NCBI GenBank assembly: GCA_964016885.1 | Contig: OZ024741.1 | Location: 234,484,001-234,548,000, forward strand | From: Eledone cirrhosa | Lineage: Eukaryota | DNA length: 64,000 bases | Direction of reading: 5' to 3' | Shown here: positions 2,189-22,490 of the stretch, piece after piece | Numbering within the stretch: position 1 is the stretch's first letter | Layout of the letters: every line of letters starts with the position of its first letter | Notes under the pieces: model-generated | What the model saw: the letters and a program-made list of their open reading frames with translations, nothing else | Database searches by the model: none | What the model was told of the DNA's origin: nothing | Program-made: the position numbers and the translations under genes

Positions 2189-2780
2189 ATATTGTTATAC
2201 TTTGGGAGGGTCATGTTGCAATAAGAAACACACCGCACCAGTTGCTTTCACTTCAATTTAATTTAATATATATTTATAAATTTACAAATTTATAAATTTC
2301 TGGTTGGTTGGTTGGTTCCACAACCAGATAGTTGTTTATATATATATAGTCATAGTTCTTTCGTCACACACTCTGTGACCTCTTCAGTGACTGGGGATTT
2401 CTTTCTTCGTTTCTGTGCCTTTCCTTTCTTCTATCCTACGCCATTTTGTAGGATAATGGCGTAGGATAGAAGAAAGGAAAGGCACAGAAACGAAGAAAGA
2501 AATCCCCAGTCACTGAAGAGGTCACAGAGTGTGTGACGAAAGAACTATGACTATATATATATAAACAACTATCTGGTTGTGGAACCAACCAACCAACCAG
2601 AAATTTATAAATTTGTAAATTTATAAATATATATTAAATTAAATTGAAGTTTAAATTGAAGTGAAAGCAACTGGTGCGTGTGTTTCTTATTGGCAACATG
2701 ACCCTCCCAAAGTATAACAATATCGGTTTCAGCACACGATTTCAGATAAAGAATCTTGCTAAACAAATTCAGAAACGAAA
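2189..2780 (+). mobile_element. Fold-back (inverted pseudo-LTR-like) element with hammerhead core and start of an ORF; probably Penelope-like
   Basis: Near-perfect inverted arms 2189-2445 / 2455-2723 with a 9-nt loop; HHR core in each arm; ATG at 2698 reads [27 protein letters not shown] into TA repeat. Confidence 0.75.
2508..2552 (+). ncRNA. Minimal type I hammerhead ribozyme motif (mirror copy on minus strand 2348-2392)
   Basis: agtca-CTGAAGA-g-gtcaca(gagtg)tgtgac-GAAA-gaac-TA-tgact: 5-bp stem I, 6-bp stem II, minimal stem III, CUA cleavage triplet. Confidence 0.8.
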
Positions 2781-3520
2781 TATATATATATATATATATA
2801 TATATGTATCTATATATATATATATCTATATATATATATATATCTATATATATATATATATATATATATATATATGTATCTATATATATATATATCTATA
2901 TATATATCTATATATATATATATATCTATATATATATATATATGTATATATATATATATGTATATATATATATATATATGTATATATATATATATATATA
3001 TATATATGTATATATATATATATATATATATATGTATATATATATATATATATATATATGTATATATATGTATATATATATATATATATATATATGTATA
3101 TATATATATATATATATATATATATATATATATATATATATATATATGTATATATATATATATATATATATATATGTATATATATATATATGTATATATA
3201 TATGTATATATATATATATATATATATATATGTATATATATATATGTATATATATATATGTATATATATATATATATATGTATATATATATATGTATATA
3301 TATATATATATATATATATGTATATATATATATGTATATATATATATGTATATATATATATATATATATATGTATATATATATATGTATATATATATATA
3401 TATATATATATGTATATATATATATGTATATATGTATATATATATATATATGTATATTTGTATATATATGTATATATGTATATATATGTATATATATATA
3501 TATATGTATATATATATATG
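2781..3520. repeat. (TA)n microsatellite
   Basis: Direct inspection. Confidence 0.98.
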
Positions 3521-3521
3521 A

Positions 3522-4003
3522 TATGGGATGAGCTGATAAACTCCGACCTCACACACTTACACCTCTCCAAGACAATGTCACTGGACCGTGACCTTTGGCG
3601 GTACTCAGTAACAGAGAAGACCCGCCTTGCCAGTAGGCATCTCTAACAAAATACACCCCTCCCGCCGCCACCCCCACCCCATCCACACCACCCCGTTCTA
3701 TGTAAAGTTATGTTGGTGCCGCGCCATCCAGGCCGAAACAAATGAGATCGTGTAGGTGTCACGACAAAAAAACACACAGTCCACGCTGTAATGTGGCCGT
3801 GTAGGCAACACGGTAAAAACCTCCCAGACCCACACTGTAAATGTGGTTGGTGTTAGGAAGGGCATCCAACTGTAGAAAACCTGCCAGACAGTCCTATGCG
3901 AGCAAGACAATCACTCTTGCCTCAAGTGGGACTACCCCCGTCCAAACCCATGCAAGCGTGGAACACGGACGTTAAACGTTGATGATGATGATGATGATGA
4001 TGA
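3522..4003 (+). mobile_element. RTE LINE 3' end (ORF end, 3'UTR, (GAT)n tail)
   Basis: [35 protein letters not shown]; 3'UTR essentially identical to 20880-21253. Confidence 0.92.
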
Positions 4004-18689: not shown

Positions 18690-21253
18690 GTAAGGTGGAG
18701 GGGTCAATTAAGGCCAAAAAGTAGGCTTGGAAAGTATGGCGGGATGGGGGAAGTAGAGAAGACTATCAAGTGGCCAGGAGGGAAGCTAGGAGACAAGTGT
18801 ACTTAGCAAGAAGGGAAGCTGAGGAAAGAAAGTTCAAGCATGTTCTACAACACGATGACCAAAAACGTGAGGTGTTCAGGATTGCTATGCAATACGTCAA
18901 AGAAAACCGTGATATTGTCGGGGAGAAGTGTGTACTAAACGACGATGGCACACTTGCCATTACCGATGCTGATAAGAAGGTAGCTTGGAAGTGTCACTAT
19001 GAAAGGCTACTAAATGAGGAGAATAAATGGGAGAAAGACAGTCTCCCCCATATCGACCCAATAGAGGGAACAGCAGTGTTAGTCGAGGGGAGTATAATAA
19101 GTAAGGCAATCAAGGATATGAAGACGGGTAAGGCGGCTGGGCCTTCGGAAATAGTTGCTGAGATGCTGAAGGCATCTGGCACGGTGGGACACACCATGGT
19201 CACCCGCATAGTTAACCAAGTCGTACAGAATGGGGTTGTTCCGAAGAACTGGCATAGCAGCATCATCGTTAACTGTTATAAGGGTAAAGGAGACGCCCTA
19301 GATAGGAGTAACTATAGAGGCATTAAATTAATCGACCAGGTCATGAAGGTCACGGAAAAAGTAATAGCGCAACTAATCAGAGAGAGAATTGACCTAGATG
19401 AAATGCAGTTCGGGTTTGTGTCAGGCAAAAGTACCACAGACGCTCTTTTCATAGTACGACAACTACAGGAGAAGTACCTAGCTAAAGGTAAACCCCTCTA
19501 CTTAGCTTTTGTCGACTTGGAGAAAGCCTTCGACAGAGTCCCCCGCTCCATTATCTGGTGGGCTCTTAGAAAACTAGGCGTTGACGAATGGCTTGTGAGG
19601 GCTATACAAACCATGTATAAAGAAACAGTCAGCAAGGTTAGAATTAACAACGAATATAGTGAAGAGTTTAGCGTAAAAGTTGGCGTCCATCAGGGCTCTG
19701 TTCTCAGCCCCCTACTATTTATTATTGCCCTTCAGGCTATAACAGAGGAGTTCAAGACAGGCTGCCCATGGGAACTCCTATACGCAGACGACCTGACACT
19801 CATAGCGGAATCAATGGCCGAGCTAGAGAAGAAATTCCAAACATGGAAGCACGGCCTAGAGTCAAAAGGACTTAAAATTAACCTGGCTAAGACCAAAGTT
19901 CTAGTTTGTAGGAAAGAAAACAAGGCGGCGGTCCCTTCTGGGAAATGGTCGTGCTCGGTGTGTAGGAAAGGCGTAGGTAGAAACTCCATTTTATGTCCTA
20001 AATGCAAAGTATGGGTGCATAAAAGATGTAGTGGGATCACAGGTAAGCTAACTAAGAACATAGATTTTACATGTGGCCGGTATGTAGGAAAGGCGTAGGT
20101 AGAAACTCCATTTTATGTCCTAAATGCAAAGTATGGGTGCATAAAAGATGTAGTGGGATCACAGGTAAGCTAACTAAGAACATAGATTTTACATGTGGCC
20201 GGTGTTCTGGTGCAATAAGTAGCAGCAAGTGCCCACAAAATACTAGCTCTTTCAATTGCGCAGAGGGTTCTATAGAAATAGTGGACAGCTTCCGTTACCT
20301 GGGCGATAAAATCAGCAGTGGGGGAGGGTGCTCTGAAAGTACTGTAGCTAGAGTCAGAACTGGTTGGAAAAAGTTCAGAGAGCTTATACCACTATTAGCT
20401 GCTAAAGGGTTCTCCCTAAAAATGAAAGGCAAGTTGTACGATGCCTGCATACGAACAGCAATGCTGCATGGCAGTGAGACCTGGGCATTGTGTGCAGAGG
20501 ATATACGCAGACTAGAGAGGAACGAAGCTTGCATGCTCCGCTGGATGTGTAACAGTAATATACGTGAACGGCAAAGCATAAACGAACTAAGGAAAAAATT
20601 AGAGATAAGAGGGATCAGATGTTGTTTACTCGAGAGAAGGCTACGTTGGTATGGACACGTGATGCGCATGAAAGTCGATAGCTGTATAACAAAGTGCAGG
20701 GCAATAAAGATAGACGGTAGTCACGGAATAGGCAGACCTAGAAAAACCTGGGACGAGCTGATAAACTCCGACATCACACACTTACACCTCTCCAAGACAA
20801 TGTCACTGGACCGAGACCTTTGGCGGTACTCAGTAACAGAGAAGACCCGCCTTACCTAAATATATAGTAAAACCTACTCCAGCCAGTAGGCATCTCTAAC
20901 AAAATACACCCCGTACCCCCCCCCCCCCCCATCCACACCACCCCGTTCTATGTAAAGTTATGTTGGTGCCGCGCCATCCAGGCCGAAACAAATGAGATCG
21001 TGTAGGTGTCACGACAAAAAAACACACAGTCCACGCTGTAATGTGGCCGTGTAGGCAACACGGTAAAAACCTCCCAGACCCACACTGTAAATGTGGTTGG
21101 TGTTAGGAAGGGCATCCAACTGTAGAAAACCTGCCAGACAGTCCTATGCGAGCAAGACAATCACTCTTGCCTCAAGTGGGACTACCCCCGTCCAAACCCA
21201 TGCAAGCGTGGAACACGGACGTTAAACGTTGATGATGATGATGATGATGATGA
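18690..21253 (+). mobile_element. 5'-truncated RTE LINE with complete RT, frameshifted by a 122-bp internal tandem duplication
   Basis: NYRGIKL, MQFGF, FVDLEKAFDRVPR, GVHQGSVLSPLLF, LLYADD; ORFs 18770-20098 and 20071-20859; (GAT)n tail. Confidence 0.95.
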
Positions 21254-21710
21254 TATATGTATATATATATGTATATATATATATATGTATATATATATGT
21301 ATATATATATATATATGTATATATATATATATGTATATATATATGTATATATATATATATGTATATATACGTGGGAAAGTAAAATATATATGTATATATA
21401 TATATCTGTATATATGTATATATATATATGTATATATATATATGTATATATATGTATATATGTATATATATGTATATATATATATATGTATATATATATG
21501 TATATATATATATATATGTATATATATATGTATATATATATATATATGTATATATATATGTATATATATATATATATGTATATATATATATATGTATATA
21601 TATATATATGTATATATATATATATATGTATATATATATATATGTATATGTATATATATATATATATATGTATATATATATATATGTATATATGTATATA
21701 TATGTATATG
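21254..21710. repeat. (TA)n microsatellite
   Basis: Direct inspection. Confidence 0.97.
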
Positions 21711-21711
21711 T

Positions 21712-22490
21712 AGCGGCGATGAATTAGTTTTGCGAGGTTTTTTATATGAAATCGTGTGTCGAAACAGATATTGTTATATTTGGGGAGGGTCATATTTGCG
21801 TAATATTGCCAGAATTAATAACAGAACACACTCACTGTTTGGTTGGTTTTCGCTTCTCGCTGTCTTTTATATATATATATCTGCGATCTAACTTACTCGG
21901 TCCTCAATGTTGCCATTGACTGACCGGCGGTCAAAAATAATACAGATACAATATAGACAAACACATATATATATAGTTTACATAATTTACATAAATCTTT
22001 CGTTGCACATCTGCAACATCGTCAGTGGTGTTATATTCATTGTTCCTCCTGTTGTGTTGTATGTCTACGCCATTTTTTTTTTTGTTGTTTTTTTTGTTGT
22101 TGTTTTTTTTTTGTTTTGTTTTTTGTTCTTTTTTTTTTTTGTTCAGTCTGTCTATATAGACAGACTGAACAAAAAAAAAAAAAAATGGCGTAGACATACA
22201 ACACAACAGGAGGAACAATGAATATAACACCACTGACGATGTTGCAGATGTGCAACGAAAGATTTATGTAAATTATGTAAACTATATATATATGTGTTTG
22301 TCTATATTGTATCTGTATTATTTTTGACCGCCGGTCAGTCAATGGCAACATTGAGGACCGAGTAAGTTAGATCGCAGATATATATATATAAAAGACAGCG
22401 AGAAGCGAAAACCAACCAAACAGTGAGTGTGTTCTGTTATTAATTCTGGCAATATTACGCAAATATGACCCTCCCCAAATATAACAATAT
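21712..22490 (-). mobile_element. Second fold-back element with hammerhead core and ORF start; probably Penelope-like
   Basis: Inverted arms 21768-22155 / 22156-22490 with no loop (left arm has a longer T-rich tract); minus ORF from 21793 [27 protein letters not shown]. Confidence 0.75.
22229..22268 (+). ncRNA. Minimal hammerhead ribozyme motif (mirror copy on minus strand ~21990-22028)
   Basis: ca-CTGACGA-t-gttgca(gatg)tgcaac-GAAA-gatt-TA-tg; stem II 6 bp, stem I weak. Confidence 0.65.

Follow-up and report, generated by a model that had tools for sequence, protein, structure and literature searches.

Penelope-like elements (PLEs) that encode an endonuclease (EN+ PLEs) target (TA)n microsatellites and have been described as inverted, 5'-truncated copies with one-sided tails (PMC8557442; here and below, literature statements refer to the available portions of the cited papers). 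According to PMC8557442 and PMC11167929, the origin of their head-to-head pseudo-long terminal repeats (pLTRs) and one-sided tail is an open question. For the Poseidon element of Anolis carolinensis (PAc), in vitro work gave two start sites of reverse transcription and cleavage of both target strands, together with a predicted dimer (PMC11167929). In Schistosoma, hammerhead motifs paired on opposite strands at distances of 100-700 bp have been noted before (PMC4209133), and recently active Penelope-like families have been reported in Octopus vulgaris, in that text without structural detail (PMC13282606). Here we describe two fold-back structures, E1 and E2, in a 64,000-nt stretch of the genome of another cephalopod, Eledone cirrhosa (GenBank assembly GCA_964016885.1, contig OZ024741.1, positions 234,484,001 to 234,548,000, forward strand; hereafter the window), and their relatives in the 3.0-Gb genome, which we call family A (E1) and family B (E2). 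Both hairpins are almost certainly insertion stubs of PLEs, mostly of a known kind. The mechanism that best accounts for such promoter-proximal stubs is, with a probability that we put at roughly two in three, twin priming combined with run-off at the start of the transcript.

Two fold-back insertions and their parent families

The arms of E1 (2189-2446 and 2454-2723) are reverse complements of one another apart from one 12-bp duplication and two 1-nt indels, and those of E2 match at 298/298 aligned bases. From the axis outward, both hairpins contain a YY1-like motif (AATGGCGTAG), a hammerhead core (CTGANGA-N-stem II-GAAA-N4-TA), (TA)n, CCAACC and the ATG of an open reading frame (ORF). This common order had been described in a first-pass annotation of the window, and it was borne out by arm alignment and by the sequence itself; the arms were found as annotated, but the limits given for them (2189-2723 and 21768-22490) omit the long-end tails, which run to 2783 and 21711, respectively. 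Each hairpin is asymmetric, the arms ending at ORF positions +26 (left) and +86 (right) in E1, and at +26 (right) and +83 (left) in E2. The E2 axis, at 22155/22156, lies inside a TATATA palindrome ~30 nt upstream of the YY1-like motif. A genome-wide search found 657 instances of the inverted 10-mer pair and none of its reversed control, which excludes chance.

Both peptides that begin in the arms run on, elsewhere in the genome, into ORFs for reverse transcriptase (RT) and GIY-YIG endonuclease. Exact 26-mers from the ORF start number 27,081 for family A and 4,522 for family B (reversed controls, 0), and the ~38,000 candidates returned at first look for either peptide were mostly one common pool. 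Among 20 stretches fetched for family B, seven open ORFs of 1,208-1,211 amino acids (aa) differed from each other by 0.11-0.55%, so that this family was likely active recently; no fully open copy of family A was seen in 13 stretches, the longest piece from the ATG being 864 aa. The unit length is 4.07-4.13 kb, and the elements include partially tandem pLTRs as well as tailed, inverted copies truncated at the 5' end. Head-to-tail arrays of at least three family B units were observed at L099-L100 (G000:C1:14381650-14395870), where the array is capped by an inverted arm, and at L095-L096. About 105 nt upstream of the ATG at L092:4293, the pLTR of family B has a GTAAGT that resembles a splice donor; no such site is evident in family A.

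The six synonymous changes listed in the annotation were all recovered, and over the 27 shared codons the proportion of synonymous differences (pS) was 0.45 (7.5/16.7 sites) against 0.13 (8.5/64.3) for nonsynonymous ones (pN). Along the whole ORF, pS was well above pN. The reading of E1 and E2 as minimal insertions of a hammerhead-bearing, (TA)n-targeting PLE was supported, but with 57-68% protein identity A and B are distinct families and not the subfamilies that had been proposed. In the first 29 codons (L092:4293-4380 vs L031:4884-4970), pS was 0.42 on 18 sites, compared with 0.58-0.88 in most of the ORF, a hint that an RNA-level constraint may act at the sites where reverse transcription starts.

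The annotation had also considered a non-autonomous hairpin, similar to a miniature inverted-repeat transposable element, that the PLE enzyme would copy whole. A general axis common to ~850 hairpins, and junction strings that are sometimes repeated (identical in 4 of the first 50), would fit such an element. However, junctions vary by locus and are mostly unique, the four identical ones differ in their flanks and occur in both short/long polarities, and the hairpin arms, which are 89-96% identical to autonomous copies, grade continuously into longer truncated copies. We consider this explanation very improbable.

Outer ends, the fold axis and proposed twin priming

Outer ends were sampled at the first 100 exact-match sites per family on contig C1, merged into 143 stretches (for the first 30 sites of each family, mostly with 1.5 kb of flank only), and only arms with an identity of 85% or more to a natural reference copy were counted. 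The 107 family A arms ended at +26 (n=57), at +86 (n=48) or elsewhere (n=2), and the 96 family B arms at +26/30 (n=50) or between +67 and +85 (n=46). Copies are dispersed, and further AT units follow 181 of the 203 ends, in agreement with the TA-flanked distribution that had been predicted. Each end site contains TA or AT as part of the element sequence, namely AATAT at +26 of either family and at +86 of family A, and TA, TAAT or TAT in family B; at the outer ends, 1-5 nt of TA/AT are identical to the target.

The sample contained 80 adjacent head-to-head arm pairs, 66 of them joined within 60 bp. These direct pairs comprised 58 short+long combinations, two long+long, no short+short and six that could not be resolved (p 3e-15 vs 50:50 for the 60 resolved); the 14 more distant pairs comprised eight short+long, one short+short and five unresolved. 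Because the search motif sits in both end types, this pairing rule is not favoured by the sampling. Within one family A insertion the arms were on average 0.041 apart (median, 0.016), compared with 0.096 to other loci.

Near-perfect inverted arms within long (TA)n, at a window locus known from the assembly alone, could also be produced by fold-back reads or assembly chimeras. A chimera would, however, mirror everything past the axis, whereas here a 57-60-bp tail is found on one arm only, the arms differ by indels, the flanks differ, and the short+long rule holds at dozens of loci; we give this explanation almost no weight.

Read 5' to 3', each strand passes from the flank into antisense element sequence at a fixed site, which is the pattern expected of two target-primed complementary DNAs (cDNAs). 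In the scheme that we propose, each hairpin would be a single promoter-proximal stub of an autonomous PLE. The endonuclease would nick both (TA)n strands, the two 3'-OH ends would anneal at different places, one at +26 and one distally (+67 to +86), and both target strands would prime reverse transcription on the element RNA. A transcript starting in the pLTR would place these priming sites 250-370 nt from its 5' end, near enough for both cDNAs to reach it. Their 3' ends would be joined, often bluntly, each cDNA templating the second strand of the other. On a transcript of this type, priming at a downstream copy of the pLTR or tail would yield longer, unequal arms and full-length copies. The hammerhead would simply be carried along, apparently with no role in setting the ends.

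The inner ends bear on the run-off step. In full-length copies AATGGCG lies within the 3' untranslated region (UTR) or pLTR and marks no boundary; the possibility that it combines the ORF stop codon with the pLTR start was discarded, the stop being ~150-230 nt upstream. Upstream of AATGGCG we found a GCGCATGCGC-like sequence in 43/48 A arms and 45/48 B arms and, in family A, CCCGGATGT in 44/47 arms; AATGGCG and these two sequences resemble, in that order, YY1-, NRF1- and ETS-type motifs. In a 20-nt window just upstream of ATGGCG, chosen post hoc with the data already seen, 12 of 57 family A arms at risk and 5 of 41 family B arms had their 5' end (background, 3.3% and 2.0%). Counted genome-wide by the spacing of the two motif copies, hairpins numbered 657 at 30 nt or less and 190 at 31-60 nt; family A control patterns gave 17 at 55 nt downstream, 2 at 55 nt upstream (the CCCGGATGT site) and 43 at the hammerhead cut site. 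Conservation of the hot-spot motif was not above that of the controls (27/56 vs 54/68, 44/47 and 35/79). Hammerhead cleavage was rejected as the source of the 5' ends, the 43 hairpins that fold near the predicted cut site doing so mostly in the TA run.

Among the first 50 of the 657 hot-spot hairpins (38/50 A-type), 28 were short+long, one was long+long and 21 were left untyped by the script. Inner ends were resolved in 40 of the 50, ten being dropped because their seed lay outside the template set. In these 40 the arms extend 1-18 nt upstream of ATGGCG, and in 18 the ends of the two arms differ by no more than 1 nt, compared with 8.9 expected within a subfamily (p 0.0005), which suggests that both cDNAs often derive from one RNA molecule. 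The fold axes concentrate in the stretch between the NRF1-like motif and the YY1-like one, immediately upstream of the latter. The axis hot spot is likely to reflect run-off at the transcript 5' end, in which case the YY1-like motif likely lies just downstream of the transcript start, and the positions indirectly support its being a promoter mark. At human start sites, NRF1 sites lie upstream and YY1 sites immediately downstream (PMC11269187); a literature search found no paper on a YY1 site in a pLTR.

Several observations count against twin priming with run-off. The inner arm ends are scattered across 18 nt instead of falling on one base, and an extra non-templated, cap-derived G showed no clear excess (9/30 vs 7/47, p 0.15). 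The YY1-, NRF1- and ETS-type motifs are predicted sites only, under names that we take to apply. In 3/15 family A pairs the arms are 9-24% apart, so the template was not always one. A single arm was present at 41 sampled loci, with a simple repeat directly upstream in 20/41 and a short inverted tail fragment in two of the rest; two arms are not demonstrably obligatory, and a second may either be missing or have escaped notice because it is short. Finally, self-priming on an antisense template is favoured in PMC3846280.

As proposed there for rotifer Penelope, cDNA or antisense RNA would snap back at its 3' end and copy itself, the outer ends being set later by endonuclease resolution, to which PMC8557442 ascribes the tail. 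Self-priming would explain the near-perfect axis symmetry of the 18/40 hairpins above and the excess of symmetric pairs (8 vs 2.2 expected in A, 3 vs 0.8 in B), and some axes, including that of E2, do lie in palindromes. A copy cannot exceed its template, however, and the arm reaching further into the element was the short-end arm in 32 pairs and the long-end arm in 15, the two being equal within 15 nt in 11. Since either arm may be the longer, neither is merely a duplicate of its partner, and the 47 unequal pairs leave at least 15 exceptions whichever polarity is assumed. Moreover, half of the hot-spot junctions (20/40, vs 6/50 in the general pair sample) are blunt and offer no pairing from which to prime. 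Self-priming therefore appears unlikely, and twin priming is favoured over fold-back.

Alternatively, twin priming may hold and the hot spot be a site of polymerase stalling or dissociation at the A-run and AC-repeat just upstream of ATGGCG. A-rich runs directly precede the motif in both families, stutter is seen at E2 and other junctions, and the ends spread over 18 nt and show no clear cap signature. Similar A- or AC-rich runs further upstream in the 3' UTR, however, hold few axes (those two at the CCCGGATGT site), and in each of the two families, with pLTRs that show poor alignment elsewhere, the hot spot falls between the NRF1-like and the YY1-like motif. We regard stalling as improbable, somewhat more so than self-priming, and retain run-off of twin-primed cDNAs as the preferred mechanism.

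The encoded protein and its placement

[quoted passage not shown] Pfam matches to RVT_1 and GIY-YIG were weak and below the gathering score (GIY-YIG, E 5.5e-4 on family A). The predicted structure (mean predicted local distance difference test score, pLDDT, 92.5) had telomerase RT as its best fold match (Z 15.2, root-mean-square deviation 3.8, 289 aligned), and the top matches were telomerase RTs (TERTs). A profile search of PDB sequences gave a weak bacterial RT match only, and an Atlas search gave clusters without a name or labelled DUF8422/HTH_animal/GIY-YIG. The best named homologue was an Octopus vulgaris hypothetical protein (69%); 92 of 94 other hits were unnamed. A long Asn-rich low-complexity tract lies upstream of the RT in both families (L092 ORF, aa 245-410; L031 ORF, aa 260-430); rotifer Penelope has Asn-rich inserts at other positions (PMC3846280).

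Motifs A and B are separated by 131 aa (A Asp to B Gly), and by 127-138 aa in the 91 of 95 proteins in which both motifs were found. Fig. S1 of PMC8557442 gives, by counting, ~60-63 aa for Penelope, Neptune and Nematis, 84 aa for one Naiad and 118 aa for human TERT. In the structure above the insert is modelled with confidence, and it may be an insertion-in-fingers region (IFD) of telomerase length. If so, it would weaken the statement that an IFD is limited to PLEs with an N-terminal endonuclease (EN).

By eye, the supplementary alignments of PMC8557442 show that the Nematis clade shares with our proteins the C-terminal GIY-YIG, a short CX4CxxC-x7-C linker and an insertion between a KxHK-like motif and RP. 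The distance from CxxC to the next Cys is 7 aa here, and 5-9 aa in all of the 70/95 proteins showing the pattern. In contrast, the A-B distance is 131 aa here and about 63 in Nematis, and motif B reads GG[AP]IG or GAAIG here and GLAMG in Nematis; the description of Nematis and other canonical clades with C-terminal EN as having no insertion-in-fingers between RT motifs A and B appears not to apply to these proteins. The label Neptune was dropped after linker alignment, that clade having a linker of ~25 aa between CxxC and EN whereas the linker here is short. Naiad/Chlamys have an N-terminal EN and no canonical hammerhead, unlike the C-terminal EN and hammerhead motif found here, and the Hydra clade has no CCHH, a DKT motif and a length of <3 kb, in contrast to the CCHH, DKSG and 4-kb units of families A and B. 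Judged by this comparison of features with published alignments, the lineage appears to match no named clade on all tested features and is left unplaced. Six lineage-typical peptide motifs had no match in the available supplement text of PMC8557442, and a literature search found no paper on a C-terminal-EN clade with an IFD; the lineage may already be catalogued in Repbase or Dfam.

Taken together, we tentatively suggest, while thinking the full combination more likely wrong than right, that this is an unnamed and widespread PLE lineage with a telomerase-length IFD and a C-terminal EN, whose insertions record obligate twin priming (one RNA and two fixed target-annealing starts, each used once) and whose solo hairpins are run-off products mapping an ETS/NRF1/YY1-type internal promoter. 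If true, obligate twin priming would explain the head-to-head pLTRs and one-sided tail of PLEs generally.

Features of the window and comparison with known systems

Table 1. Features of E1 and E2 (window positions).
Feature	Position	Strand	Remarks
E1 left arm	2189..2446	-	Family A pLTR and ORF +1..+26 (short end), into (TA)n
E1 junction	2447..2454	.	Few bases repeating the adjacent arm start (GTAGGATA)
E1 right arm	2455..2783	+	pLTR and ORF +1..+86 (long end; tail 2724-2783), into (TA)n
YY1-like motif, family A	2455..2464	+	AATGGCGTAG; mirror copy 2436-2445; motif name presumed
Minimal type-I hammerhead motif, family A	2508..2552	+	Core from 2513, predicted cut 2547/2548; compared with features in the available part of PMC4209133
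Hammerhead motif, family A, mirror copy	2348..2392	-
Family A RT-GIY-YIG ORF, codons 1-28	2698..2783	+
E2 left arm	21711..22155	-	Family B pLTR and ORF +1..+83 (long end; tail 21711-21767); T-rich stutter ~22072-22140
E2 right arm	22156..22490	+	Family B pLTR and ORF +1..+26 (short end), into (TA)n
YY1-like motif, family B	22184..22193	+	AATGGCGTAG; mirror copy 22065-22074
Minimal hammerhead motif, family B	22231..22268	+	Core from 22233, stem I 2 bp; mirror core from 22025 (-)
Family B ORF, codons 1-27	21711..21793	-	Protein identical to open 1,211-aa copy L092:4293-7928

Other structures were observed in the window. A near-perfect palindrome of TA/CA-type repeats lies just upstream of E1 (1956-2048). 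A third fold-back beside (TA)n, at 52885-53025, carries a core resembling a hammerhead on each strand (CTGAGGA...GAAAC, palindromic AATT loop) and is probably a stub of another PLE family, and a fourth, with TA-rich flanks and a variant core (CAGAAGA...GAAA), at 36520-36690, is possibly another PLE stub. A different hammerhead-like motif directly follows (TA)n at 52678-52720; its near-identical counterpart at L038:3700-3745 lies 2.8 kb from a 762-aa open frame (L038:6510-8795) with, by eye, motifs like those of Hydra-clade PLEs. L039:265-3400 holds an array, in part inverted, of ~467-bp units with a hammerhead core in each (CTGATGAG...GAAAC); it resembles an array of non-LTR retrozymes.

In E1 and E2 themselves, the predicted hammerhead core and helix II are retained in both families, and helix I appears weak in B (5 bp in E1, 2 bp in E2). 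The covariation noted for stem II was recovered as two double-sided, compensatory pair changes, from two lineages only. No hammerhead family was among the best 150 of 638 Rfam matches, those listed being of sub-threshold miRNA type. Minimal type-I hammerheads of metazoan PLEs share with these motifs the CUGANGA and GAAA core, an extra base between 9 and 10.1, the G10.1-C11.1 pair, a long helix II and a short helix I (PMC4209133); in comparison with those, helix II here is 6 bp, helix I in B is 2 bp, and loop III of family A is not a strict palindrome (GAAC). Non-LTR retrozymes are head-to-tail tandem units, each with a hammerhead and without an ORF (10.64898/2026.07.22.740005, in the available text), whereas E1 and E2 are head-to-head and carry an ORF start.

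Countable rules (short+long, TA identity, one-site run-off) that are directly testable in vitro emerge from a young family that has open ORFs and ends numbering in the tens of thousands. In LINE-1 twin priming, each target strand primes a cDNA and an inversion results, the two L1 cDNAs covering different parts of the RNA; here, in contrast, the proposed cDNAs would overlap completely and begin at two internal positions that are fixed. Twin priming in PLEs was not the subject of any paper found by literature search. PAc shares with families A and B two RT start sites in the ORF start that bracket the tail, and an AT-rich target cut on both strands; it differs in that its starts are non-homologous to the cleaved DNA, whereas those here (+26 and +67..86) have TA/AT in common with the target, and in that its hammerhead overlaps the ATG, whereas the one here lies 135-190 nt upstream (PMC11167929). 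With the complex insertions of EN+ PLEs (PMC8557442, Fig. 2 legend; PMC3846280), the hairpins have in common a pLTR with the first ORF codons, a head-to-head inverted copy, a tail on one end only, a microsatellite target and partial tandems. The tail is 41-60 bp here compared with 30-40 bp there, the two arms are minimal here, with a single hot spot for their ends, and the short+long pairing, only qualitative in the available parts of those papers, is counted here. The hairpins are ordinary debris of a known class, to which the present analysis adds the short+long pairing rule, a mapped axis hot spot and a telomerase-length A-B spacer in the RT.

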